The translations under genes were made by a program, and so were the position numbers. The notes under the pieces were generated by a model, which saw nothing but the letters and a program-made list of their open reading frames with translations, ran no database searches and was not told the origin of the DNA. From Sphyrna mokarran (taxonomy: Eukaryota), in the NCBI GenBank assembly GCA_024679065.1, contig JAGIQG010000006.1:86428001-86492000 (forward strand): 64,000 bases of DNA, read 5' to 3'. Positions 13,259 through 59,803 of this stretch are shown here, in pieces. Each line of letters starts with the position of its first letter. The stretch's first letter is position 1.

Positions 13259-13516
13259 GGCTCTGTATAGGGAATGCGTGCAAAAAAAAGGTGAAAGAAT
13301 AACTTGAGCGCATGTTGTTGTTTCACAGAGGACTGAACTGTTACTTAAAATATATTAATTGTTTTGTTTGCCCGTAATACAAAATGCTGTTTTGAACCTT
13401 ATATATTGTGAGTGCACATTTGAGTTATATGTGAGCTTAAAATCTTACTTAGACATTGCTTAAAACCGGCAAATGTACATAGTTTTAAGTAACCATCCTT
13501 TTATTTTCCTTTACAG

Positions 13517-13803
13517 AGGGGCGTTTGCATCTCCAGGATATCCCTTCCATAACCAGCAGAGGGCACCTGGAGGCTACGCCAGACCTGGTAGTGGACTCTT
13601 CCTACTACAGCAACTTTTATCAGCCATCTCTCTATCCAGCTTACTACAACAATTTATACAACTATCCCCAGTACCAGGTGGCGGTAGCAGGAGATTCACC
13701 TGCTTCTGACGTCAGCTCCACACTGGGAGGGACAACTGTGAAAAATAGCCTTCGAGGCCTGTCTGCATCACTAGTATCTGGTCAGTCAGGAAACCAGTGG
13801 CAG
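13517..13803 (+). CDS. DMRT1: DMRT1 internal coding exon (equivalent to human exon 3; Pro/Tyr/Ser-rich region)
   Basis: Acceptor ttttcctttacag|AG, donor CAG|gtaggc, 287 nt, phase 1 to 0. Encodes (E)[95 protein letters not shown]. This matches the recalled human DMRT1 [48 protein letters not shown]...VKNSLRGL...GNQWQ. Confidence 0.97.
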
Positions 13804-14269
13804 GTAGGCTGAACATTGATTTTCAATGACACAATATTATTATTGTCATTTTTGCTAATGAGTATATAAGTATTAGAATTTATGAATAAGCTGAATGAAT
13901 TGTAGTAGCAAAATAAGGTAGTGAAATGCTGATGGTATGAAAACAATGGTTTGTGTAAGGAGGCTTTGGAGAGGTTTTCTGACCTTTATTCACAGGGTAC
14001 ACTGATTTCCCAGGTACCCGATGGAAGATAAATGGAATGGGACCCAGTCAGTTTTGAGTCTTTTACATGTCTTTGGATATCTGGGACTTCGCTTGCAGGA
14101 TGGACCCATTGGGTATCAGCTCATTCATTGAATGGGAAGTGAGGATCTGGATGTGTCCCCTGACAGTTGATCCTATTTTTTTTGAAATTGGTCCAAGGGG
14201 CATCCCGCTGTGGGGTATTTCTAGAAGTTGTGTCAGAATCTCTTACTAACTTTTGTGTGGGGTGGAGTT

Positions 14270-14295
14270 GGGGGGGGGGGGGGGGGGGGGTGGGG
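14270..14295 (+). repeat. Poly-G tract (G21 TGGGG), G-quadruplex-capable
   Basis: 21 consecutive G at 14270-14290. Confidence 0.85.
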
Positions 14296-14432
14296 CAGGA
14301 GATGTGTTCTAGGGTGGGTGAGACATCCCCATTGTAATAAAAAAAATCTTGGTACCATTAACCACCTGATCTACAAGTCTGTTGCAATAGTAACCTTCCC
14401 CAGTTTTCTTGTGCTGGGTCACATTAGGAAAA

Positions 14433-14726
14433 TCCATAGAATCCCCATAGTGTAGAAGGAGGCCATTTGGCCCACCACTTCTGCACTGACTCTCCGACAG
14501 TGATCCTACCCTTGCTCTATCCTCTTAACCCCACATCTTGGAACACTAAGAGACAATTTACATGCCCAGTCCATCCAATCTGTGCATCCTTGGACTGTGG
14601 GAGGAAACTGGAGCATCTGGAGGGAAATCCATGCAGACAAGGGGAGAATGTACAAACTTTACACAGACAGGTCACCCAAGGCTGGAATTGAACCCATGTC
14701 CCTGTTGCTAATCACTGTGCCACCCC
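14433..14726 (-). mobile_element. HE1/V-SINE family SINE
   Basis: Reversed V domain ttggactgtgggaggaaactggagca...gaaatccatgcagacaaggggagaatgtacaaact, with tRNA head at 14680-14726 and CR1 tail at 14433. Confidence 0.88.
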
Positions 14727-15250
14727 AAAATGATGGGGTGAGTGTACAAATGTGCTATATTAAAGACCCAGGACACCAGATTTGACTGTGCCTGGCCTAA
14801 GAAGGCGCAATACTATATAGAGTGGGAGAGAGAACCAGGAACTTTGTCCTTTATATTCTTTGACACATAAATTTAAAAAAAATGATCCTTTTACTCCTTT
14901 AAATTGAAGGAAGCATTTTGAAGCATTGCTGTTAATTTCACACAATTTAGTTTAGATACGTCTTTACTAATGCAACTGCCCATTCTATGTCTGTTCATCC
15001 CACTGCCCCCCACCCCCCGTTCAATATTCCCTATATTTTCTTTCCTTGCTTTAATTTAGATTTTCTCTCTCTCTCACACACATTCCTCCCCATTGCACCC
15101 TGTGCTGTCCCCTAACAAGATGAGCAGGTAAACTGGTTTCTTCAGTCAACATAAGAAAAGGCATGTTCCTCTGACAGGATTTCAGGATGTCCTGACTGAG
15201 AGGCTTTAGATTAGAAACTTAAAATATGGACATTCATAGCAGGAGCTAAG

Positions 15251-15292
15251 TCTTTTTTAAAATGACATGCGAAGATGTCATTTTAAAAAAGA
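15251..15292. repeat. Perfect 18-bp inverted repeat with 6-nt loop
   Basis: TCTTTTTTAAAATGACAT-gcgaag-ATGTCATTTTAAAAAAGA. Confidence 0.95.
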
Positions 15293-16210
15293 AATCTCAA
15301 TCCCTTTGCCAATCTGCTCATTTCTGGATTGAGCAGAGATGGGATGGGGGTTAACTGTGACCAAACCAAATCCTTCCAGGAAGAATTTAATCATCTCAGC
15401 ATTTTAGTGGATCTTGGGCCTCGTTTTTAACCTGCCTTACAAATTTGACCCTGACTGGCCAGATTTTGCAGGCCATGGGAGTTCAGAGCTGAAAGGAGGT
15501 GAGGCAAAGCTAAGTGTTCTTGCAGTACAGCTTGTGGGCTAGGAAAAGCAAGCATGCTTTCTCCAGCCCATCAAGCTACCTTTATTTCAATCCTCTCCCC
15601 TCCCCCGATCCAATCTTAAATCTGTGCCATCTGACCCTTGTTAGAGATTTGAACCCCCTTCCCCCTCCCCAATCCCCCGACTAATGTGCCAGCTTCCTTT
15701 TCTGCAGCCTCCTGTTTCCTGCTTGACAGAAAACCCAGTCTGTTGATTGATTTGCCTTTGGGTGGGAGCCTATTGGAAAATAAATAGATACACAATTAAA
15801 ACTTCACAGCATCCCAACCAGAACCCAATCCAATTTCCATATTACTTGAGTAACCTACTGCTTATGGCTTTAGGGCTGCTGTTCACCAGCCAGCTGTGTG
15901 CTGCTTTCTTGTTTTATTAATGAATGTTTGACTTCATATTTCTTTAATGCTCATCAGCAAATCTAATAAAACCTACGTAGCTATGTACCTGAGTACTGGT
16001 GACCTATTAATCAGTATAATGATTGTGTGTTAAACCTGTACTTAGAAACACAAAACGACTTGATAATTTGACACCTTTTAATATTCCCATTACTTGCTTT
16101 GACTTATGGACACAGACATGTTTTGTTAAAAATAGGTTGCATTTGTCAGATCTAACATTGCATATCTGGGTGAAAGGGTTTATTTACGTTGCATATGTTT
16201 TCATTTTCAG

Positions 16211-16231
16211 AGAAATGAAAATGATGAGAAG
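16211..16231 (+). CDS. Candidate 21-nt in-frame DMRT1 microexon (RNENDEK)
   Basis: gttttcattttcag|AGAAATGAAAATGATGAGAAG|gtaagt. It has a perfect AAG|GTAAGT donor, a pyrimidine-rich acceptor, a length that is a multiple of 3 and no stop in phase 0, the phase of intron 3. Confidence 0.55.
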
Positions 16232-19200
16232 GTAAGTACTCATGTTTGTTAGTTTCTGCGTAGCAATTCCTTCCCTCCTAATTTTTTCAAAATGCTTTCA
16301 GATCTAATATCTTGATTTCTCTGAATATTTTTGTCCATGTACTGCATGCACTAATTTTATGCTTTTTCTCATTTTGTGCTTTTTTAACCTTGCCTTTTAC
16401 CAAGATTCGCCTGGAGTTCTTGTAGCTGAGGCTATACTGGTATATGACTTTCAACATCATGGTTTATCCTTGTATTAATGTTGCAGGAACATGTCATGTG
16501 AATATTATAACAAACAGAAGGCCCTGCATACGTTACAGGTGAAATTTCTGGCTGGGCCTCACACAAGTCTTGTTGAAAAACCTCTGGCATTGCATCTGAA
16601 GTATGTTACCTATATAACCAGCGCTGCTGTCCTTAAGCTGAATTTTATTTTGAGTTTCAAGAAAGGTTATGAATTGGAATAAGTGATTGTTGGAACTGGC
16701 TAGTAATCTGAATTCTGGGCTTTAAGACCCTTGAGAGATTGTCCTGCTATTAATGTCTTTGTTAAAATAGCAGCCAGAAAACTTCATACACACTCATGCT
16801 CATTAACACTACACCCCCATTTAGTTCCCAAGAACAAGTTAGTTTGCTGTCACCCTCAAAAGAAAGAGTATATTCTGGAAAAACATTAACAAAAATAATC
16901 TAAGCAAAATGTTCAACCTTAGTCAAATTGTCAAAGGAAAAGAATTAATGAGCTGAGGCAATACTGAAAAGTAAAATCCAGTGCAGTGCTCAAAGAAGAA
17001 AAACATGATCGTGCTAATAGGCCACTGAAAACCTCTAACCTGACCAGAGGAATGAGTGGGAAGCTCTTCAAAATTGTACCTGATGTCAAAACAGCCACCG
17101 TGGATTCACAGATGCTGTGTAAGTCCTAATTGTATTTACTTTAATTGTGATAACTCTCAGGCAGAAAAAGCAATGTACATAATTGTAAAGTAAATGCACT
17201 TAAATTATACGTTAAAATCTCTCTAAATATATGTCAATTGTTATTTATTTTTCAGGGTTATTTTGCTTCTCAGTATATAAATCTAACAGTTCATTTTGTT
17301 TGCTACCCTTTTTTTGTGTTCACAGATAAATCTCAATCAACTAGTTCCACTCATTTATCATAGAGGTCAAAATGTTGTGAAGAGCACTATGGACGTATCA
17401 GAACCAATTCACGCTGTTTCCACAGGGCTTCTGCTTGAATTACAATGAGAAATCAAGCCCATCCCACAGAAGTTGTCCTTTCCAGAGTTTGGTGATGAGA
17501 GGAAGATTTGTTGCTGGAGGCGACAAAATGTTTCCATTCGGCGGAGGGTTTTCTGCAATCAGCTACTGAGTGGTTTAGAGAGCCAGTTGGTGCCAGATTC
17601 TTTATATGGGATTATTGGAAGCTTTTCAAACTTGTAGATGATCCGTCATCCATTGAGGCAGATTCTTGTACCATTCCCAGAATCTCACATTGCAGAATTT
17701 GGGCCTTCTGCAGCATTTGTTGTACAGTGACTGCGCAAGCACCAGCTTGAACAGTGTGATGTTATGAAGTTGGGCTGGATATGATTGACTGAGCTCCATA
17801 GCCCTCCTGCTCATTACAATGGCTACACTTCCCTGTGCAGCTCGGTCATTAATTTGGGGCCCTCTTTGACTTTTTCATGTCTTTGGTAGCTGCTTTTTTC
17901 AGACCCAGATCCTGCGAGGGTTCAGATTTTTACCAGTGTGGCCCCTCCCTTTGTGCAGCAGAACTAAAACTGTCTCTGGAATGTCTTTCTATGGTTTTTT
18001 TCTCATAGGGGCACTGAAAACCATGTGTCATTAGGATAGAGACAACATTACCTTCACTGTAAAATCAGCTTGTGACAGGTAGAGCTGCTCTCCATATAGA
18101 CGCCTCTAGTCTCCCAAAAACCAAAACAGTAGAGCTAATGGAGGTTAAACTGAGCTCGGTAGCATCTATTCTTCAGGTGTTACATGGGCTTCTAAGGAAC
18201 CAAAATGTCAGGTGTGAAGTTGATGTACAGCTCTGATATACATTGGGATATTGGGAAAGGGCAAACATGACGTCGTTTATCGAAAACAAAATGCCTAAAG
18301 CAGGTGATACTACTTTTGTATATATAAATACAAGGCCTATCACCTGCTTTAGTTTACTGCTGCAGCTTTGGTTTACCTTGATGCAGCCAGTGCCTGTCTC
18401 TAGGAGAACTAAATCAAAACATGGCGCGAGTAAAATAAAAAAGCAAGCAGTCAGCACCAGTCACTGCCATTCCCAGTCTCTCAACTCCTCACTCCCTCCC
18501 GCCTGCCTGATGATCCCTTACCCCAAGACACATAGGATTACCACTCACCTGTTAAAAAATACAAGACTTATACTTCCTGCTGCGTCACCTTTATGATGAT
18601 GAGGTCAAAGGCTTTGTACAGGCCTTTCAAACCTCAAGATGCTCAAAAATGGTAGCAGAAATTCTATCCCAGTGAGTTTGCCAAATTATGATTTGGGGAT
18701 CAACACAAATTTTGAGAGATGTGACAGGCTGTCTCACCTTGGGACTCCTGGTCAGGTTATTAAATTTATTTCTGTGCTGTAGCCAGGTCTTGGTGTAAAT
18801 GTTGCTCAGGTCCACATACTGTGCCACTTCTCAATATGTCCAATCACCAATTCACTTAAAAGAAAAGGGCACTTGCATTTTAAGCTCTGGCAAACAGTTA
18901 AAAAACTGCTGCACTATTAAATTTCCAGAACCTAGTTCCAGCCATGCTAAGTGTGCTTTACTCTAGCATCTTGTCTACCGTGTGCTGCTGTGGGAAAACT
19001 GAGACAGGTTCTTCACTGGTTACGGAGGCAACCATTCCATTTTTCCCACTCTTCTGCCAGTTAGTTTTACATAGGGAGACTAAAATCAATTAGCTGTACT
19101 TTATAGTTTCCTTTGAATTAGTGCAACCTTTCAGACATCCCCCCCCCCTTTAAGGTTGAGACTTTAAAGGACATGCTTTCATTATCTTCATTTGATTTTA

Positions 19201-19553
19201 GTATTGGGGGTGTGGGGGGGTTTTGTGGGGGGTAATGAAGTAGCTATATCGGAGTTATGTTTTAACCCCACGAACCTTGGCGCTGCTGAAGAAATGATGT
19301 GGGGGAGAAGGGGGCTATTAGCAAATCTGATCTCTTTCACTACTTTTACAGTTATGAGATTCAGGAAGAAGTAGGCTCTTTTACACCCGAGTCTAAATGG
19401 CTAGTTATGTGACTGCTGTTTTTGTTTTGAAAAATAATTGTCATTTGAAAAATAGAGAACGTTAAAATGTGTGTAGAATAGTCTGAATTGAGAATTGGGT
19501 TCGCATCCTGAGACACAGGTTTGGAGTCTGTGGAGATGGTAGGATGGAAACAG

Positions 19554-19680
19554 AGGGTGGCATTTTCCCACTCCCCCACCACAGGAATGGTAGTGGGCAG
19601 AGGCGGACCATGAAAAGGTCTGTTCACCTCAGACGGGATTTTTTGATCTTGGGGCAAGCGCTGCTGGAAAATCTTGCTCA
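19554..19680 (-). mobile_element. ~125-bp MITE-like element (copy 1)
   Basis: Reverse-orientation relative of 26132-26257 and 43437-43562, with ends gggtggcatttt...aaaatcttgctc. Confidence 0.55.
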
Positions 19681-22600
19681 GAATGACAGAAACTGATTAC
19701 TTGTGTTTCTGGTCACCCTTGCAGTTCTGACCTGACTTCTAGTGATATATTTTAGGCTGAGTTCCCAAGTGGGGATCTGGCTGCTGGCTTGGTCATCACT
19801 GAAATGTGGAATCACATCTGCAAGTATTTAAATGCCAGCAGCACTCTCTTGGAGTTGGAACATCTTCAAGATGAATAGAATGAAGATATTCATATCATAG
19901 CACATTTAAACTAAATGGAGCGTCATAGTTGAAGAATTGCTAGATTTTGTATTGCACAAGATGAAGCCCTGTTGCATGAGATGCATGCATGGGACCTCAA
20001 CGTACCTCTTCAGAATAGAGCTGTTTGTGATACCTGAACTGGTATAATGCCATCTCCAGAATTCACTAAATCTGGATCCAAATGAACAAGAGGGTAAAGG
20101 ACTTGACGAGAATGACTAAGATAATCCAACGGTGTCCAAAACCCAGAAGCTAATCAAGCTTGAATGCTGCATATTGTTTCCTCTTAACTTTTAAACTTGT
20201 ACTATTAACCCATTCAACATATTGGCAAAAAAATACCTGAACGTAAAAGAGCAGGGCATGTCTTACTGCTGCAAATGACCAAGTTTACACTTGTCGCACT
20301 CACCACTTAAATAACATCGACACTAAACACTCGTACAACACGTGGTGCATGTTTATTAACTCACATATTGAGTTACAGCTGGACACTTGTGTGACTCAAT
20401 CATCTTTAATGTCCTTTTGTCCTCGGGTTTGTAGAAGTTCCGGATATAACCAAACAAATGTTACTGCAGTTTCTGCTGGTCTTTTAATCCCGCAGTGATA
20501 CCTGACTACCTATTTCCACCTAGTGAAGAACCACTGCAGGGTCCTTTCCACATTGGAAGGTGGCCTCCATTGTGCAATTAATATTGATTCCTTAATTAGT
20601 TGCAAGGTTAATGTATAAAGGGTCAGACAGGTTGTTCTTTTGCACTGACCCAATTCTGCTGGTATTGCATTTTCTGGCTTCTCAATTACTGAAGTAAGGG
20701 ACTTATTGCCTGTTTCTGACAGCCACCATGGACACCTGACAAATGGCCCAATACAGTATCAGGTCAGAAGTTCCACAAATAATAATGGGAGATGAAATAT
20801 GATCCCCAAATTTGATCCATGTGTCTATTTTAGTATAAGTGGCACAGCGAGACCTAATTTGTTACTTGTATTGTTTAGAATGTAGTTTTTTTGGTATTTG
20901 TGGTCAAAATTAAGAGAGATATTTTAAAGATGCATGGAGAGGGATGGAGAAAAAAAAAGAACACATCCCAGAAACAGCATTAGAAGAATATGATAAAATG
21001 GGGGAGCAGTAATCTGGATATAAGACTGTTCATATATTTGTTGGCTTTGAGGCTTGAAATGCAGAAGACAGTCAGCATCTGAAAGAAGATACATTAAAGC
21101 TTTGGCAAGAATCCCTCATTGCATCTATTTCTCCTGGTAACCTATCTCACTTTCAGAGGCTGTGTGATTTAAAGCTAATCTCTCGGAGTTTCTAGCGTAA
21201 TTGCAAATAATGTTGCATTCCATTTATAGTGTTAAGCATTTTCTTTTGATTGTTGTAAAATTCTCGTAATTCTTCTTAGAGATATCAAGATAGATTAGAC
21301 AAACAGGAAACAGAATTTCAGTGTGTAACAGTGCTGCTCCTTGTTTGTCTACTAAGTTATCCACATCATTGTCAGCACCAGCTTGCTGCAATAAAGATAA
21401 TTTTTAAATTTAAATTGCAACCTCCTCTTTAAACAAAATTCAGTAAATCTTCACAATTTTGCTGTTCAGTTCCAGGATTCAATTCCAGCCCATAATTCCA
21501 ACTAAAATGATGTAGGTTTTAAGAAAACATTTAAATCATTTTTACAATTTGGGTGCAGTCATGAGTGTATAGCATTTTAATTTGTGACACTGTCTTAACC
21601 GGCTGCATTTTAAATTATTTTATGTTTTTTATCATCTTTGTTTACCCTTTTACACATTCTGATGTTTTGACAGGAAATCCACCAGCCTTGTAATTAAATG
21701 AGTAATCTTGAAAGCATAGAATTATTGATGAAACAGAATATATATTATAGCTTAAGAAAAGAAATGAACATTATTCAGACTGATCGATTAACCAAAACAA
21801 TGAGATTAACATCACTGTTGCATATACTGATTTGATGACAAAGGAATTAAATATTGGAACAAAGAGTTTGAAGAAAAATTGCAATGTGTGTGATAAGGCT
21901 ACAAGGAACAAAATAAAATTAAAATGGACGTATAATAAAACAATGTGCTAAAAATGAGTAGCAAACAAATCGGCATCTGAAAGAAAGATTGGTTAGCATT
22001 TTAGGTATAGCCTGTCAAAAGAACCACTAGGTATAAAACTTATACCAAAAGGTTGTGGAGCAATGCGGTCCTTAGTCTCAACTCCAAGAGCTACTGGTCA
22101 GTCAAAGGTCAGTCAATATTATTATTGTACAATAACCACAAGGCCTCAAATCAAAAAAGGGCTCAGGCACATGTGAATGATGGTGGGGACGGGGTTCTTG
22201 TAGGGAGTTGTGAAATGGTTGTGAGGGCAGTAGGTGACTTTCAGGAGCCTTCCACCTTCCTGATGCTGGATCTCTTGAGAAGCGTGAAGTACTTTTGAAC
22301 GAGGGACACCATTCCCAGTTAGACCGCAAGCAAACACACTAAGGTTTCCCTGTGCTCCCTGCAAAGGATCTCTGCCTGCTATTGACTGACTGCCAGTGGT
22401 GGTGGGATCAGTTGTTAGGGCTGGATGGCCATCTTTGGACCTTCCTGGACATTATCTGGGTAGAGGTGGGAAGGTGGCATAGTCCACACCTGCCATCTCC
22501 CTGACCAAATAAATTCCTCTCTCCACTTTGAGGGCATAAGACTTTGCTCTGTGATTTCCTTCTCACCTTCACTGTTCATTTAGTCTGGGATCACACATGG

Positions 22601-22889
22601 AAACATTTATATTTCATTCTTCAGATGGTTTTTGACTTGCCCTTCTCAATCTCTGGGAGAACATCTCGTGAATCTCCTGCAGCTCAAAGATAAAACTAAG
22701 CAAAAACTGGAGCTTTAAATGAAATGTGTTCTTCAGTAACTGCAGAGAGATAATAAAAAAAACTCACTTAACATAATGACATAACTTGCTGTAAATATAT
22801 AAATCAAGATGTAATAAATAAAGATGTGCCACACTTCACAGTTACACAAATACTTCCATCTGTGTCCAATTGGCTTCTGTTCATTATAT

Positions 22890-24433
22890 GATAATTGCCC
22901 TCCACCCTGGAAACCCTGAATGAACCTGTATCCGGGGTTACCATTGCAGATGTCATAGCAGCTTTCTCAAAGATCAGTCCGTGAAAGCGACTAGCCCAAA
23001 TTGGATATCCAGACGAGCACTCAGATACTGCATGGATCAGCTGGCAGGGATAATCATAGACATCTTCAACCTCTCTTTACAATAATCTGAGATCACTATC
23101 TGTTTTAAGAAGACAACCATCATCCTGGTACCTAAGAAAAAAGTGTGCCTTAATGACTATTATCTGGTGGCTCTGACATCCATTATTATGAAGTGCTTCA
23201 AAATGCTAGTTATGGCATGAATTAATTTTAGTCCCCCAGACTATGTGGATTCACTATAATTTGCCTACTGCTGCAACAGGTCCACAGCAGATGCTATTTC
23301 CCTAGCCCTGCCCTCAACCCTGGAACATTTAGATAACAAAGACACCAATATCAGACTCTTATTTTGACTACAGCTCAGCCTTCAACACCATTATTCTCAC
23401 GAATTTCAATTACAAACTCTATGGCTCGGGCCTTGGCTCCTTCCTCTGTGACTGGATCATGAACTTCAGTAAGGCTAAGCAACAACACCTCCATGTTCAT
23501 TCTCAATACCAGTGCCTTACAAGGCTGTGTTCTCAGCCCCCTACTATACCTTATTATACTCTTTATACACATTGACTGTGTGGCCAAATTCCCCTCCAGT
23601 TCGATTTTCAAGTTCAAATGACATCACCATTGTGGGACAGATCTCAAACAATAATAAGAGTAACAAGAATGAGATAGAAACTGGTGCAGCGACAATAATG
23701 ACTCCCGCAATGTCAACAAAACGAAGGAGATTGTCACCAACTTCAAGAAACATAGAAGAGAACATGCCCCTGTCTATATCAGTGGGCACAAAATAAAAAG
23801 GGTCGAGAGCTTCAAGTTTGAGATGATCAGATCACCAACAACCTGTCCTGGTCCCTCCATGCTGACACCATAATTACAAAAGCCCTTCAACACTTCTACT
23901 TTTTCAGAAGGCGAAGGAAATTTGGCATGTTAGCTACGATTCTCACCATCTTTTACAGATGCACCATAGAAAGCATTTTTTCTGGTTGTGTCACAGCTTG
24001 GTATGGCTCTTGCTCTGCCCAAGACTGCAACAACCTACAAAAGGTTGTGAGTGTTGCCTAATCCATCATGCAGACCACCCTCCGATCCATTGATTCTGTC
24101 TACATGTCCCACTGCCTCAGCAAAGCAGATAGCATAATTAAGGACCCCACGCACCCCGGCCATACTCTCTTCCAACTTCTTCTGTCAGGAAAAAGATACA
24201 AAAATCTGAGGTCACGTACCAACCGACTCAAAAAAAGCTTTTTCCCTGCCTCTGTCAGGCTTTTGAATGAACTTACCTTCCATTAAGTTGATCTTTCTCT
24301 ACACCGTAGCTATGGTTGTAGCACTACATTCTGCATTTTCTCACTTTCTATGAACAGTATACTTTGCCTGTAAAGCACACAAGAAACAAAACTTTTCACT
24401 GTATGTTAATACAAGTGACAATAATAAATCAAA
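22890..24433 (+). mobile_element. Rex1/Babar-clade LINE, 5'-truncated, decayed RT with intact 3' end
   Basis: [59 protein letters not shown]...RTNRLKKSFFP and tail gtgacaataataaatcaaa. Confidence 0.88.
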
Positions 24434-25704
24434 ATTTTATACTGATATAGGTAAGCATATGAAATAATAAATAAAGAGTCCATTATTATGTAAGAATATT
24501 ACTGTAATAATTATATAACAATATTGCGCATTGCAGTATTTACTCTCACAGTTGTTTCTTTTACTCAGGTAACTTAAACATACAAGCTAAACAGCACTAA
24601 GTTACCCACTTTAAAACATCTTAACTTTTATGGCTAATTCATTTATTTATTGATTTATTGAAGCTATTTTAATTAATATTTACCAGAGGGGAAGCTAAAC
24701 AAAAGTCCTGAAAAAATCCAGGTCTAGTTTAAGAAAATAAATTAAAACAGCTGTAAAATGAGCTGCAGATTCACTTTTGCCATTTTCTGTTTTTGCTGAA
24801 GCCCATTTCCATATACATAAACACTGAATCATGAAGGGCCATGCTGTGTTGAAAGTTATGTACTCCATTTAGCATTCTAACTTATGTTGCTGTCTCTTCC
24901 TGTATGCATCTCCCAAGAATAAGCTGCAGTTGTCAGTACTGGAGATGAGGCTAGCACCTCACGTAATCCTGCATCACTCACAGCGCAAGTCACAAACTCC
25001 AAGGCTCTAGTCTACAATAGACTGCCTTTTATGGATCTGATGTACTGGGCATAGATGGAGACAGCCATTTCATATTGCCTCACTTCACTGCCTTCATTAT
25101 TACCCTGAAATTTGCTTCCAGACAAGTCAACGGACTTGTTGAGAACTTGCCTAATAACTGGCATGTGCTGGAATAGGTGCGGATGTGGCTGCTGCTTTTC
25201 AGTCATCCAGCGTAGCTTATCTTGCTTAATGAATGACAGAACATTTGCCAGATGGCCAGCTGGATCAAAAAAAAGCATTGACGAGTCAGATATGGCGACA
25301 GCAGTTACAGGGATGTCTGATGACCCCTCAAAATGAAGCACAGGATAGGCAGTTGTCTCCCACAATGAGAAACTCTTGAGTTGTATGGTGATACAGATCT
25401 TAATAGGTTTACTTTCAAATGGAGTTTGATATTACAGTAGGACTGGAATGAGACATCACTTATCACCTTGTACACAACACAAGAGGGTGATCTGCATGGT
25501 GCAGTAGCCAGCCAACTCTGTCTTTCATGCCATTGAAGTATTGGATTGTGCACTGAGTTTGGCAGTTAAGCATATGACAATATATGTGGTCTGTGTTCTG
25601 GAAATCTTGGATATACTATATAAAATCTTCCTCAACATTCACATTCCTGCTGTGGAGGCTTTGCACTAAAACTCCAGGATGCAATTAATGACCACCTTCA
25701 TCTA

Positions 25705-26030
25705 ACTACTCAGCATCTTCTGCTGCTGATCCATGTCTTAATTCCATATTTCTGTTCGATCTCCCTACAGTCCAAAAACCTAGCGATATCAGTCTTGAAT
25801 ATTCCCAACGACTGAGCATCCATAGCCCTGTAAAGTTGAGAATTCCAAAGACTCACAACTCTCTGTGCGAAATGGCTAACATTTTTATCCTGAAACATGT
25901 CCTCTAATTCTAGACTTGACAGTCAGGGAAAACAGCTTGGGGCACCTACCCTAACAAGTGCTCTCAAAATCTTATGTAATAAGAGGACCTCATTTTTCTA
26001 AACTCTGGAAAGTATAAGCTGACTCTCCTC
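25705..26030 (-). mobile_element. CR1 3' fragment
   Basis: ORF 25710..25898 F.QRVVSLWNS....FKTDIARFL. Confidence 0.8.
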
Positions 26031-26131
26031 GTAGGTAAAACTCACTCTTAAGTACTGAAACACCTAGTAATGAACGTATGTACCTATCTAACATTCACAA
26101 ATAGCTGACATCATTCCCAAACGCACACTAC

Positions 26132-26257
26132 GGGTGGAAATTCCTGGCCATGCTCACCCCAAGACTGGAAAATCCCACCCAAGATCAACAGACCTTCGGA
26201 TGGTCTGCGTCCTGCCTGCTACGATTCCCATGGCGGGCAAGATGGAAAAATTCCACC
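26132..26257 (+). mobile_element. ~125-bp MITE-like element (copy 2), probably Harbinger-derived
   Basis: Terminal inverted ends ggtggaaatt...aaattccacc. Core aaaatccc...caagatcaac.gacct is shared with 43437-43562. Confidence 0.65.
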
Positions 26258-26424
26258 ATGCATATATTTAAGTATCAGTTCGACCCATTATGTATACACT
26301 CTTGTTTAAGTACTACATTTTGCCTTTTATTTATTGCAATGTGATTTTCCTATCCAAGCATTTCATTATTATCCTAATCATAATCTAATTTCATGTTGAG
26401 TACAATTATTGACTTCATTGCCCT

Positions 26425-26920
26425 TGAGGTTCACTAAGCTGATACCGGAGATGAGAGGGTTAGCCTATGAGGAGAGATTGAGTAGACTAGGTTTGTACTC
26501 GTTGGAGCTTAGAAGGTTGAGGGGGGATCGTATGGAGACAAATAAGATAATGAAGGGGATGGATAGGATAGAGGTAGAGAGATTCTTCCCATTTAGAAAG
26601 GATAGCAGTATTAGAAGGCACAGCCTCAAAATAAGAGGGGGGGTGGTTTACATCAGAGTTGAGGAGGAACTTTTCACTCAAAGGGTGGTGAATCTTTGGA
26701 ATTCTCTGCCAGTTGAAGTGGTGAAAGCTACCTCACTGAATATATTTAAGTTACGCGTAGATAGGTTTCTAATAAGCAAGGGAATTAAGGGTTATGGGGA
26801 TAAAGCAGGGAAGTGGAACTGATCCACTTCAGATCAGCCATGATCTTATTGAATGGCGGGGAAGGCTCGAGGGGCTAGGCTCGAGGGGCTACTCCTGCTC
26901 CTATTTCTTATGTTCTTATG
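26425..26920 (+). mobile_element. Young 5'-truncated CR1 LINE
   Basis: RFTKLIPEMRGLAYEERLSRLGLYSLE.RRLRGD...FTQRVVNLWNSLP, tail ttcttatgttcttatg and retained CpGs. Confidence 0.93.
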
Positions 26921-27429
26921 AGATGAAGCATGGATTATAAGACCATTACTTGGAAGAAAGCGCCTTCCAAGCTCTTTCTTTTGGTACTAATTTTAAGCTT
27001 GTTATCAATTAACCGTCTGGTGGAAATAACCTTTCACTAATAACCTATTTCTGTATTTTTGAAGAGTTTATGGTCATTTAGCCACCCCTGTCTTGTAAAT
27101 ATTTCCATATCCCGCACACATCTTTAATCATAATTACATATCCTCTCATTTCTGATGCCATCCTACTAAATCTACATTACTCTTTTTTGCATGATGTTCA
27201 TTGCTGTGCCTCCAGTAAAATGCTTAGAACTAGCACAAATCTACAATAGTGAATTAACTTGTGCCTTGTATAGCTTCACTATAACTTCTGTGCATCTTTA
27301 GATAAAACTTAAAATTTCTAACTGGAATTCAGCATTTAATGATCTGTATATTTAGAGCACAGAGCTTACTTATTCACTCCATTGTAAAGTATACTTCGTT
27401 TCTATTCTCTTGTTTTTCTCTAAAATAAA

Positions 27430-27732
27430 AGTTAGAAGTTTTATTTGTTAGTTATAAGTAAGCTTACATTGACGCTACTGAAGTTACTGTGAAAAGCCCC
27501 TAGTCATCACACTCCGGCGTCTATTCAGAGACACCTGAGGGAGAATTAGCATGGCCAATGTACCTAACTAATCAGAATATCTTTTTGATTAGTTAGGCAC
27601 ATATTAGGTGGGAGGAAATCAAAGCACATAGAGGAAACCCACACAGACACTGGGAGAACATGCAATTCCAGCTGGAAATCAAACCTGAGTCCCTGGTTCT
27701 TTGAGGCAGCAGTACAAACACCGTGCTGCCCT
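27430..27732 (-). mobile_element. V-SINE variant with a different 3' tail
   Basis: gtgggaggaaatc..agcac..agaggaaacccacacagacac V domain. Tail aagttactgtgaaaagcccctagtc is also present at 55322-55428. Confidence 0.82.
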
Positions 27733-29149
27733 TCATATGATTTGCTGGATTTACGCTCCTTGATTTGAAGACGGTGGGGGGGATCTTCGAAAATCCAGCT
27801 TTTTGTCCATCCCTGGCTAGTCAGGCCTATTAAGGCCCTAAGGAGCCAACTAGTAGCTACTTAAAGACTTTATTCTACCCCTGGCCTATATTGACCAGCA
27901 GCTCTCTAAGGTGGAACTTCATGAGATGTGGCAGATGTCTTGTCTTAAAGAAGTCAATGCTGCTATAAGTGTTAAATTACTGCAGGACAGCCATCGCTCA
28001 CCAACTCTTCAGCCAGGGGAGATTGGGAACCATAGCGCCCTGCTACGTATCTGATTACATCCCTGACCTCCCAAAATGAACCTAACTTTCCTCATCTTTT
28101 TTTTGTTGTGCACATAAATTCAACTATCAGAAAGCACAAAGCTACAATAGTGAAAAAAGTTTTAACGGGACCTGGGTGCCGTCGTTGGCTGTAGGTCAGC
28201 ATGTTTTTCTCAAACCCAATTTCACTTGAGATAATGGTGCTCTGTCTCCTAGAGCCGCTGCAGTCCATATGGTGTAGGTACAGAGTGATTTTGACTCATG
28301 CATTGACTTCTGCAAGTAGCTGGAAGACTGGTATGGTAATTACTAGTATATGTAATTATGACAGAAAGATTGATGTGCAATAAAAGTAACTACTGGCTTT
28401 TGGAGAGTGAGTAATCCTCGTAACGCTATTATAATTCATAAAATCTCTGAACTTTGCAGCATATAAGTTGGCCTTTGTGCCTCTGCTGGTTTTGCTTTGA
28501 CTATTGACCTCTACTTCTAGCTGCCTTTGTTGCCCTCGTACATTTTTCCTCCACCACTGGCAGCAGAGCTTTCAGCTATTTTGGCATTATTCTGGAATCC
28601 GGTCCATGAACTCTTCCATCCCACTGTTTCTGTGTGTCCTTAAAACTCTTCTCGCTAACTGTTCTTGACTTTTCCAAACGCGATGTTGATTTGTTTTTTT
28701 GTCCCCTCTGTGAAATGTTTTGGGAATATTTTGTATGATAACACCACCATTTAAATGGAGGTTTTTAATTTTTTTTGCTGAATGTAAGATATTTTTGAAC
28801 CCAGATGTTTAAAATTGTGTGGTAAAGTTTATAAAGCTGCACTAGTGCTAACTGGATCAGTATAATGCCAGAAACCATGCAATAGAAATTCAATGAGAAT
28901 AGTAATTCATAGATTCAACTAGTTTGTTATTTTTGAAAATAGATCAAGCATCATGTTCAGTTATTCTCTGGATTAATGCAAATATATTGTTCAGTTTATA
29001 AATCACGAGTTACATATTTTGTATATTCCTCAATATTTATGTTAAATGTGTAGTATTGTATTACTTAGACCCTGATGCTTGGTCAACGTGTGGCATTTTA
29101 CAACCAGCTGGCTAATAATTGTAGAAAAATTGGTTTTGGGTTTTAGTCA

Positions 29150-29385
29150 ACTATAGAGGGTCAGAGCCAACTGGGTTATGTTTTCACTTGGCACCTGCAC
29201 ATACTGACTTTTTAATGGGAATAATTGAATATTAGCTGGTTTTCATCTGAGCAGTTCTGACACAAATTGCAGCCTATATACTGTTGCCCAGATGAGATCG
29301 GCTAACTCAAAAATGACCCATCCCAAATATCAGAATTCTTTTTATGCTTTGTAGGCTTGAATAGAGATTAGGCTAGCGAACAGCT
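29150..29385 (-). mobile_element. Old tRNA-SINE fragment (family of 32690-33060)
   Basis: tgagatcggctaactca is the reverse of tgagtt(t)gctgatctca at ~32747. Confidence 0.5.
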
Positions 29386-30161
29386 TCCCTCTACTATGTC
29401 CAAGTAGCAAGCAGAATGTTATGTCGCCTGTGGACAGATTTGCAAGGGTGGGTGGGAGGGTGGCCTGAAGAAATTCCGAGGGTGCCTTACCTTCGCACCC
29501 CAACCTATTTATGACTTAACAGGTGGCGGGAAAGCTCCAAATAGTCCTCGTGTCCTAAATGACCATTTCCTGACAGGCCCCTTTTCCATCAGAGGTCTGA
29601 CACCCCTCGCAAACAGGCATACTCACTCCTAGGTCAAGCGAGTTGGCTGGCAGATCTCTGAAGGAAGTCATCCTGGCCAGTTGACCAATTACCAGAGCAT
29701 TGACTATCCCACTTGAGCAGGGACAAGTTTAAACCAACTTCATTGATAAAATCCTGCCACCCGTAAAATCCTGCCTAATGCTTCTAAATTCTACAATCAG
29801 AAGTGGGAGGGGGAGGTGTTCTGCTAACTTTTTACATACTGATCCACAGGGGGAGCTCCTCAGTCATTTCCTAATTGTATACCTCAATATGCTGATATAT
29901 ATCCAGTTTGAATTATATTTTTCTCCACTCACTAATTATACTATGAAAGTAGATGCAAGTAAAAAGGCAACTTCATACCCTGAATTATTAATCAGCATAA
30001 TATAGTTCCACTGTATGTCTAATTATCATTTTGTCCCAATGGGTTGTCTCATACTTGGGTAAATTGCCATAAATAAACAAAATACTAAACACTGCAGACA
30101 CTTTACTATTGTTCTGCACAAAGGATTTATGGTGAATAATGTGTTTGTTTTTTTATTACAG

Positions 30162-30336
30162 CAAATGAAAACTCCAGAGAACCGGTTTTCGGGCCACAAT
30201 GTGACACCACAATACAGGATGCATTCTTACTACTCTGCAGCCTCATACCTGGGTCAAGGCCTAAGCACAGCTGCTTGTGTTCCTCAGCTGTTTACTCTGG
30301 AAGATGGTTCCTCTTTCTCAGATGTAAAATCCAATG
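30162..30336 (+). CDS. DMRT1: DMRT1 internal coding exon (equivalent to exon 4)
   Basis: Acceptor tttgttttttattacag|CAA, donor AATG|gtaggt, 175 nt, phase 0 to 1, in frame with the previous exon. Encodes QMKTPENRFSGHNVTPQYRMHSYYSAASYLGQGLSTAACVPQLFTLEDGSSFSDVKSN, with the DMRT1 signature QYRMHSYY..SYLGQ..VPQ.FT.ED. Confidence 0.97.
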
Positions 30337-31289
30337 GTAGGTTAAAATTTTTTTCGCTCAGTTCTATTATTAAAACTTAATTGCGTTAAAAAAAGGTCAG
30401 TATACATTTCTTTCAAAATCAACTTACTTGCAAAACACATAAAGTCCTTATTTGGAGTGGATGAATTACATGCTCATGAAAGTGGATAGAATGGGCAATA
30501 GAACATTTTTCCTTCCTTAACTGAATGTCAGCATCAGGCACTCCAGAGATTGTACATAGCAAAGGCCATATACAGGGTAAATTTTCCTCTACTTTGTCCA
30601 AAGAACATGCTAATTATGGCCTCAAAGTGTACTCCCCGCTGCACCAGTGCAACCTTTTTTATTTCCAGTATCTTCCTATGAAATTTTTTTTGGCGTGTCT
30701 CCCTTTATGTTTAAATGTTTTTAGATTTTTTTTAAAAAAATTAAGTGAAGTATTAAAATACTGCAGTTACAATGCCTATTAATTTTTCCACAAATAGTTT
30801 ATTATTCTATTAGCTTGCATCTCAAAACATTAGTACATGGTTAGCCAAGGGTAAAGGTCCATGACAAAATAAACAAGAAGTGAAAAAAACATATCAGTTC
30901 ACCGCTCTTGCATCTGAAACAAGACTTATGTATAAATACAAAAGGAATATTACAAATCTTTAATAAAAGAGGGTAAAAACTGAAAGTGCAGAGAGGTTAG
31001 TCAGCATGTGAAAGTAAGGTATGCCCAACAGTTCAAATGTAGTTCTTCGCCAGAATTTTGGTCCAAACTGAATGCTTGGTATCTTTGTTTAATAAACATT
31101 AAACATTTAATCATTTAAAAATAGCCAATAGGAACTAAATTAAATGCTTTCCTCTCCCATTTTTCCTTATTCTGTCTTTATCTGTCTTTTATTGCACAAT
31201 TTGCACTATATTATTGTCAGTTCATTGTTGTGCATTTATTCTGCACATTAGCAACACTGCCGCTTTTAAAAATCTTGAACTGTGGCTTT

Positions 31290-34190: not shown

Positions 34191-36589
34191 ACAGGGAAAG
34201 TTTTCCATTACCCCAACACTACCATTTCTCGATGAGGATTAAAATTCATCGAACAAAAATCTGCAGCGATTAAAACAGTTGTTGGCATCAATACACCAAG
34301 CTCAGAATCCTCTCTGATGACACTGTTGACAACATCCAGAAGCCCTGACTACACTTCAGGAATGCCACTCAATGCAAACTGCTGAGTGTCTCTGGAGACA
34401 GGAACCTCTGAGTCCCTGAAGGTAAAGCTTCTTGATAATGATCTTATCACATTTTCTCTACTGAAAGTGCTCAGTTATCACTCTGAATAGCAATATAATG
34501 TTCCAGTAAAGGAATGGCAACATTATGTTGGCAGTACTATATGAGCCGTACAAACACTGTTTAGTTTGCTTACCAGATTCGCCAAAGGAATACGAGTGTG
34601 AGGACTTCTCAGCCTGAAACTGTTCCATCACCAGAGGTAATGTCAGGGAATACATTACAAATAAAAGATTCTTCTATCCGTTTTTTTGTAGTCAAACTTT
34701 TTGTTCATCATTTTATTTGTTGCTGTTTTTTAATGGAGAAAACCGATAAATTCTATCTAAAATATGTTCAAAATACTAGATTAATTTCTGCATATGGTTT
34801 AAAATGGTGGAAAAATCAGACTAATGAACACAGTTACGTAGATTCATCTGGAACTTTTAACACCTTCCAGATCTAGTGGAAGAGAGGTTTAGGTCATCTA
34901 GCTCCAAACTGAGACAGTAGCAACATACTTAGAGAACTACAGTGAAAGTATATGTCACTTCCAGCTCACCCCTTTCCTTCTCATTCAGTCAAACAGTGAG
35001 ATGAACATTAAACGGTAACTAATCTCTATAACATCTGGGCATCAGTCAAATTCTTAACTCTGTTTATTACAGTGGAGCCTAGAAAATATGATAGAATTGT
35101 AGTAGATGGATTAGATCCAAATTGGTTAAGTTACTCATCATAATAACATGGTTACCAATTATTTTTACATTTCAGTTAAGTGTGTGTGAGAGAAACTGTT
35201 GCTTCATAAAGTAGAAATTTGAAGAGTGAACAGCTGGAAGCTAAGACCTCTCTAATATTGTGGTTAATGTTACAACTCAGTATCTTTATAACTGAGATAA
35301 AGATCTCAGTTATTTAATGAGATATAGTTTACTGACATGCTGGATTCTGGCTTTGAGTCTGTTTGCCAAGTATAGCTTTTCTGAATTCTGATACTTGTAC
35401 ATTCAGCTAATGCTAAGTATTATAAGTATAAATATATGAATGATGAGGTGAGTGCACGAATGTCAATGTTACTGCAATGTTTTCTGTCAAATTACCAAAA
35501 ATATAATTGGTGCAATATCTGCAGAATTTTTGCAGGTAAGTAGGACAATTGTTTTAGATTGGTATTTCAGGAAATTAGAATATGTGCAGGAACTGATTGT
35601 GCAGTTGTACATACTTTGAAGCATAGCCATTATGTTATTCACTTCAGTTGTCATTTGTATCTGACCATAGTGAAGGAGGCATTGCCTGCAGATTTCAAGC
35701 TTCCCCTCTCTTTTAACCAGTGCAAATAAATTTAAAGAAGGACTAACAGATGCTGGAACCAAAGAATCCCTACAGTGCATAAAGAGGCCATTTGGCTCAT
35801 CAAGTCTACACAAACTCGCAGAAAGAGCATTCCACCCATTAAAAAAACTCCTAGATTAAAATAAAGCAACTTTTTATTTTTGTTCCCGACTTAAAGAACT
35901 TATCCTGTGAATTATATGTTTTGGTTAGTAATAGGTGTGAATGTTGGTCTGAGCATATACATAATCTGGGCAGAATTCTCCCAGGCCCCAGCTGGCGGGT
36001 TTGATGGTGGGCATGAAGGGAGAATATAGTGGGAGGCTCAGAAATCGGTTTCATACTGGCGTAAATTTACAGTGAGATCTTGTACTGGTGTCCGCCATGA
36101 TGGTTGTTAAATCTGCCAGGGGCCAGCTTGACCCTCACTTGCTTCCCATTAATCTGACGTGGACAAAGGCCAGAATCCCATGCCAGATTCTCTGCGCTAC
36201 CAGCAACAAAACATGTCGCTATGAAACACATTCGGGACAAAGTGATGTGCAGATGTTGAACTCACGTGAACAACCTCTGGGATTGCCTCAGGAGTTCATT
36301 GATGGAGGCCACCTACAATCCTGGACCTTGAAACACCACACAATGGATCAATGGTGCACCTGCAGATGAACCTTCCAGATTAGCTACTCTGAAAGGGATC
36401 TTCCAACCTCAGAATGTTCCTGAAGATCCATCTTCATTCTGAGGAGATCCATATTCCGTTCTCTGAGTGCCCCTCAAGATTTATCTTCATTTTCAAGAGT
36501 GAGTCAGTGATGTTGACTGCCTTTTCAATATGGCACCCAGCACAAGTGGCGGACTTCACACCATCCGGGCCTGCCCATCACTAAATATT

Positions 36590-59654: not shown

Positions 59655-59803
59655 TATTTTCACCTTCCAGTAGTCAGGACTCAGGTTTGATCTCTCTGTC
59701 CAGCAGTTCCCCTGTCAGCACCGGAAGCATTAAACAAGAGTGCGAATCTGTCACCGAGTCTGGCACCTTTTCTGTCGATTCCATTATTGAGAGTGCAGAG
59801 TGA
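59655..59803 (+). CDS. DMRT1: DMRT1 last coding exon (equivalent to exon 5), ending at TGA
   Basis: Acceptor tttgtttcattgcag|TA, phase 1, compatible with exon 4. Encodes (V)[48 protein letters not shown], matching human [22 protein letters not shown]...ECE...FTV..IE. It is missing from the ORF track because it is short and has no start codon. Confidence 0.96.

Follow-up and report, generated by a model that had tools for sequence, protein, structure and literature searches.

Accounts of DMRT1 give it five coding exons throughout the vertebrates, and it is stated in the accessible text of bioRxiv 10.64898/2026.07.14.738559 that extra DMRT1 coding exons are unobserved outside monotremes. The non-DM part of the protein, which according to the same text has no known structure, is thought to recruit co-regulators. 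In sharks, Dmrt1 expression is male-biased in juvenile gonads and was undetected in gonadal primordia, as given in the available part of bioRxiv 2025.03.13.642935.

Constitutive micro-exons are characterized by a strong donor, a T-rich tract 5–20 nt upstream and a purine-rich, enhancer-rich body (Li et al. 2015, PMC4317164), and non-neural microexons differ from neural ones, in which the tract sits at 15–30 nt (PMC12871342). The element on which SRRM3/4 act consists of UCU_CUC followed by UGC and occupies the gap that separates a displaced tract from the AG (bioRxiv 2024.09.17.613571).

The stretch of Sphyrna mokarran DNA analysed here (64,000 nt, 'the window') covers the 3′ portion of DMRT1, which is single-copy; exons 1 and 2 lie approximately 65 kb before the window starts, and more DM-domain genes follow on the downstream side. 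On the + strand, exon 3 in its long form (13517..13803) ends NQWQ and its product is 98 % identical to residues 163–259 of S. torazame DMRT1 (99 % to that protein in the search with exon 3 alone), exon 4 (30162..30336) begins QMKT, and exon 5 starts at 59655. A preliminary description of this DNA had proposed a regulated microexon in intron 3, which we find is an annotated and probably near-constitutive DMRT1 exon of chondrichthyans.

The microexon and its splice sites

The 21-nt coding microexon lies in DMRT1 intron 3 at 16211..16231 (+ strand), in the context tgttttcattttcag then AGAAATGAAAATGATGAGAAG (16211–16231) then gtaagt, and the position and AG/GT flanks given for it in the preliminary description were all verified. 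Its sequence gives RNENDEK in phase 0/0, a peptide matched in public models, and as exon 3 ends on a whole codon the peptide would be inserted between NQWQ and QMKT without a frameshift, as had been predicted. Donors were scored against the consensus MAG|GTAAGT, by which AAG|GTAAGT (16232..16237) matches at 9/9 positions and the donors of exons 3 and 4 at 7/9, these strengths being rough consensus match counts, not MaxEntScan scores. Hence, the donor is indeed the full consensus and stronger than the established DMRT1 donors. A T-rich pyrimidine tract adjoins the CAG acceptor (16196..16210), and pyrimidines make up 82 % of positions −15 to −5 relative to the AG, falling to 60 % at −30 to −16 and 33 % at −45 to −31. 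The exon body, described earlier as purine-rich, contains 18 purines among its 21 bases.

With canonical AG/GT borders, a size within the 3–27 nt range of microexons and an open frame, this is the sole frame-keeping candidate of 3–27 nt that combines a pyrimidine tract with a donor scoring at least 8/9 on either strand of the 64-kb window. When the + strand was shuffled preserving dinucleotides, a comparable candidate arose in 0/40 shuffles at a donor score of 9/9 and in 6–9/40 at 8/9. The microexon sequence has a single match genome-wide, in a search that passes over very common words, and the site is free of recognizable repeats, as claimed (no tandem repeat, and no match by self-BLAST). The exon at 16211–16231 is very likely a real DMRT1 exon, because it is unique in the window, its splice sites and frame are intact and its peptide is present in public models.

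Flanking motifs and conservation in related organisms

The accessory motifs listed in the preliminary description, TCTAAC (16151–56), TGC (16190–92), TGCATG (16343–48) and ACTAAT (16350–55), are all at the places reported, with TGC at −21 from the acceptor and TGCATG at +112 downstream of the microexon. Taken singly, none stands out: across this intron, 53 % of 45-nt windows contain TGC, and 6 and 7 % of 150-nt windows contain TGCATG and ACTAAY, respectively. TCTAAC does resemble a branch point, but that role is doubtful because an AG at 16175–76 intervenes before the acceptor. The upstream flank (16100..16195, +) includes, in addition to the TGC and the distal CTAAC (16152–56), candidate branch adenines at 16182 and 16186.

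The orthologous intron was aligned from three related organisms, in each of which one contig spans 16090–16420 in one piece. The AG, the tract, the donor and the 21-nt length are unchanged in all three, which bears out the conservation expected of a genuine exon. The sole exonic change, found in 3/3, is A>G at 16221, which replaces Asn by Ser. Upstream, the 111 nt at 16100–16210 carry 5, 1 and 4 changes in the three relatives, and the TGC at −21 is kept in 3/3. Downstream, a conserved intronic block (16329..16410, +; 82 nt) that contains TGCATG, ACTAAT and a T-rich tract has 2, 3 and 2 substitutions vs 11, 11 and 11 in the preceding 86 nt (16243–16328), counts from which 2–4 differences per run near the stretch ends are absent and which come from organisms that share history. 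The clustering of substitutions around 16329–16410 has p=0.004 for a window width chosen after the data were seen. The low counts in the flanks would be unlikely (p 0.0001–0.03) under a neutral rate of roughly 10 %, a rough figure inferred from exon 3 word shares.

The downstream block is possibly a splicing enhancer, a cryptic 3′ site or a DNA regulatory element. From 16350 to 16404 (+) it runs from CTAAT to an AAG through an extended T-rich tract in which TCTC and TGC occur, resembling a 3′ splice site of SRRM3/4 layout. A second exon behind the AAG at 16403–04 would be doubtful, there being no good donor (5–6/9), an in-frame stop, and no poly(A) signal nearby. A likeness between 16390–16411 and the acceptor sequence at the alternative last exon described below was attributed to chance, as 9/312 windows score equally.

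Distribution among DMRT1 proteins

Public DMRT1 proteins do contain RNENDEK-like inserts, which the preliminary description had proposed searching for. RNE[S/N]D[E/D]K is found in 25 models from 11 of 20 chondrichthyan species, a set assembled by a protein search with exon 3 alone and look-up of cluster members, and in all 25 it lies exactly between NQWQ and QMKT. These carriers were compared at the protein level, and the model of one species may draw on those of its relatives. They range over chimaera, rays and sharks (S. torazame, S. canicula, Rhincodon, two Chiloscyllium, Pristiophorus, Leucoraja, Rhinoraja, Narcine, Hemitrygon and Callorhinchus), and one, GCC23408.1, is from a submitter annotation outside RefSeq. 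The same seven-residue insert in the same place is seen in XP_072372978.1 (Scyliorhinus torazame) and XP_038660607.1 (S. canicula), and likewise between NQWQ and QMKT in XP_055488793.1 (Leucoraja erinacea), XP_069783848.1 (Narcine bancroftii) and XP_042201382.1 (Callorhinchus milii). Five of the seven insert columns are invariant (vs 8/14 on each flank), and of the remaining two one has either S or N and one either E or D. RNENDEK as encoded in the window is identical to the insert of five Narcine isoforms; Asn at insert position 4 is found here and in Narcine, and Ser in most sharks and in the three relatives.

Nine of the 20 species are each represented by one model, which is without the insert. 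This suggests that the insert-less single models were built without good transcript support, because seven of the nine have faulty exon 2/3 junctions or odd ends. Both Mobula models lack the exon and have otherwise ordinary junctions (one was fully checked). Three partial Callorhinchus UniRef models also show no insert.

Outside the chondrichthyans, the insert was in none of the 136 bony-vertebrate DMRT1 proteins with a readable junction between long exon 3 and exon 4, where the spacing is 12–15 residues vs 23 with the insert; the other 26 of the 162 non-chondrichthyan proteins were unreadable at this junction, being fragments or having odd ends or the short ray-finned form of exon 3, which in sturgeon, paddlefish and bichir is joined straight to exon 4. 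Coelacanth and lungfish DMRT1 lack the insert. A loose motif search of all 345 proteins, many of them other DM proteins or fragments, gave no match outside chondrichthyans. The best 150 representatives included tetrapod-like and ray-finned-like DMRT1, both without the insert, and none identifiable as lamprey or hagfish; the one divergent outgroup candidate looked up was an amphibian, not a jawless fish.

The suggestion that the exon is chondrichthyan-specific or ancestral agrees with its spread across chondrichthyans and its absence from the bony-vertebrate proteins examined, and no jawless-fish DMRT1 was identified by which to choose between the two. As judged from the sequences compared, a gain in the chondrichthyan lineage and a loss in that of bony vertebrates would be equally good accounts of its distribution, and the exon appears to be at least as old as the chimaera–elasmobranch split, approximately 400 million years ago. 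It also provides a clear marker of exon gain or loss at the root of the jawed vertebrates.

The preliminary description did not recognize the exon from the five-exon mammalian model, and it is indeed absent from bony-vertebrate proteins, yet NCBI shark, ray and chimaera models already hold it. Hence it is no discovery, but a little-noticed lineage feature that involves no new mechanism. No paper describing an extra exon in shark DMRT1 was found in a literature search that covered mostly open-licence sources and few subscription journals, and sharks are unmentioned in the accessible parts of PMC7605655, PMC7085901 and bioRxiv 10.64898/2026.07.14.738559. Read as predicted proteins, the shark models contradict the monotremes-only statement in the available text of the last of these. 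The monotreme exons 2a, 3a, 4a and 4b (bioRxiv 10.64898/2026.07.14.738559) are likewise lineage-specific coding exons in the non-DM part. Exon 3a, which is alternatively spliced, is approximately 108 bp (291 vs 183 bp products) in the same text and the shark exon is 21 nt; homology between the two was rejected on size only. To the five coding exons the cartilaginous fishes add a microexon and a conserved alternative last exon, which corrects the comparative picture of DMRT1 and flags the single-model shark and ray annotations without the exon for rechecking.

Inclusion of the microexon

We consider it fairly probable that the microexon, as the counterpart of the annotated chondrichthyan seven-residue exon, is by default part of the majority of DMRT1 transcripts. 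All 17 numbered isoforms from the six species with multiple isoforms include it (6/6 species), though they differ from one another elsewhere. The level of inclusion is inferred here from gene models, which may have evidence in common through aligned proteins and may represent the abundant forms alone. A search of sequencing runs listed none recorded as RNA that contains the sequence and none sharing half or more of its words. Of nine runs classed as probable RNA, four from relatives were compared with 13450–30400; they covered parts of exon 3 only, with none over the microexon or exon 4, and their junction tables were filled with repeats. One further run aligned nowhere on 16090–16420. These blanks weigh neither for nor against inclusion. 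Among short proteins, three were found and none spans the junction of exon 3 and exon 4.

An exon of this length would be too short for ordinary exon definition, and strong built-in signals may carry its splicing, the T-rich tract against the AG serving to bind U2AF and the perfect donor to bind U1, together with the purine-rich exon body; the conserved downstream intronic sequence could act as an enhancer that assists inclusion. In its strong donor, proximal T-rich tract and purine-rich body the shark exon has the features of human constitutive micro-exons (PMC4317164), and a tract at −15 to −5 fits the non-neural microexons of PMC12871342. It differs from the human constitutive group in its flanking introns, which are 2.4 and 13.9 kb vs a median of 955 nt (PMC4317164), and its conserved flanks and TGCATG are features that the accessible text of that paper ties to alternative, not constitutive, micro-exons.

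These last features bear on the principal alternative, namely that the exon is a regulated cassette, included in adult testis, presumably the source of the gene models, and skipped in ovary, germ cells or embryos, with RBFOX-type control exerted via the downstream block. TGCATG is intact in 3/3 relatives inside an 82-nt block with 2–3 changes vs 11 in the adjacent 86 nt, the upstream flank is conserved too, two Mobula models skip the exon, and other alternative splicing is annotated in shark DMRT1. Furthermore, TGCATG is enriched downstream of alternative microexons, and conserved flanks mark them (PMC4317164). Against this, both forms never co-occur among the RefSeq isoforms of any species, and at the observed rates a 6-mer would remain intact in the three close relatives by chance with p=0.27–0.55. 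In RBFOX-dependent microexons, moreover, splice sites are often weak and exonic enhancers sparse (PMC4317164), the opposite of what is seen here, where the donor is 9/9, the tract is proximal and 18/21 bases are purines. We therefore retain from the proposed RBFOX site that TGCATG, kept in 3/3 relatives within a conserved block, may point to some regulation, and note that the weak splice-site profile that tends to accompany it is missing. The proposed QKI site fares worse. The QKI motif is ACUAAY, and ACTAAT reads GCTAAT in 2/3 relatives (16350 A>G), so that the site is broken there. On this evidence a regulated cassette is rather unlikely, and the earlier picture of a regulated exon with SRRM3/4, RBFOX and QKI motifs is not supported as it stands, as every isoform in 6/6 species includes the exon and the layout of the 3′ site is constitutive.

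A bolder form, in which the exon is a 400-million-year-old DMRT1 splice switch of cartilaginous fishes, included in testis and skipped in ovary or germ cells via the downstream block, and may be an ancestral jawed-vertebrate exon lost in bony vertebrates, is clearly improbable. If true, it would give DMRT1 effector regions that differ by sex or cell type, much as in insect doublesex, and only if inclusion is sex- or cell-type-specific would the microexon have greater importance.

Dependence on SRRM3/4, as in neural or endocrine microexons, is very doubtful. The shark exon shares with SRRM3/4 neural microexons (bioRxiv 10.1101/2024.09.17.613571; PMC12871342) a length below 27 nt that is a multiple of three (21 nt, frame-keeping), a strong donor and an upstream UGC, the TGC before the AG being kept in 3/3 relatives, and neither UGC nor its usual position is strictly needed for the response to SRRM4 (bioRxiv 2024.09.17.613571). 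The claim of a UGC enhancer is correct as to the TGC at −21, which would lie between a putative branch point and the AG, but such a TGC is commonplace at 53 % of 45-nt windows, and the rest of the element is missing. The shark tract is proximal, between TGC and AG and not displaced upstream of TGC, placing the UGC outside the gap between tract and AG, and UCU/CUC or UCUC-type words are absent from the 100 nt upstream (no TCTC, TCTT or CTCT in 16110–16210). Again unlike the neural microexons, the exon belongs to a gonadal gene, male-biased in juvenile shark gonads (bioRxiv 2025.03.13.642935), every isoform in the models includes it, and RefSeq has no skipped isoform beside an included one. Least credible of all is a conserved look-alike that is not, or is no longer, spliced in this species, since though 9/20 chondrichthyan species have models without the exon, it is unique in the window with splice sites and frame intact, and its peptide is identical to five Narcine isoforms.

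Predicted consequence for the protein

The default-included exon would add a charged seven-residue spacer that separates two conserved blocks, NQWQ and RMHSYY, within the C-terminal half of the protein, which is predicted to be disordered. In S. canicula X1 the insert corresponds to residues 259–265, and AlphaFold2 gives a pLDDT of 35–39 and no secondary structure over residues 251–270, which suggests that the region is disordered in a model that is poor overall (mean pLDDT 45, with the zinc module near 50). The spacer would lie far from the DM domain. It is likely to affect how the effector region is spaced or charged and not how the protein binds DNA, and its putative role is likely to be that of setting the distance or charge between two conserved effector-region blocks. 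A literature search returned nothing on DMRT1 effector function.

Other features of the DMRT1 locus

An alternative last exon (DSPKEYECEDFSA-stop) that is conserved in shark and ray DMRT1 is found at 34565/34577–34617 (+), followed by AATAAA at 34660. It replaces exon 5 and is 100 % identical to annotated Scyliorhinus and Pristiophorus isoforms, and a second acceptor 12 nt upstream adds VCLP. A further candidate last exon, at 45042–45091 (+), shares 13/15 residues with the end of Chiloscyllium plagiosum isoform X1.

Exon 3 has a weak internal donor (5/9) at 13677|13678 (+), where exon 3 of ray-finned fish ends. It is used by five single chondrichthyan models, while sturgeon dmrt1b-type proteins read past it, and it may represent an alternative 5′ splice site of ancient origin. 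Also within exon 3, an 84-nt GT..AG segment (13588–13671, +) corresponds to 28 residues that S. canicula isoform X2 lacks, and this segment, which includes a tyrosine-rich block, is possibly an exitron. Finally, the acceptor of chondrichthyan exon 4 is shifted 3 nt upstream relative to most tetrapod models, which gives the exon one more codon (Gln) at its start (30162–30164, +).
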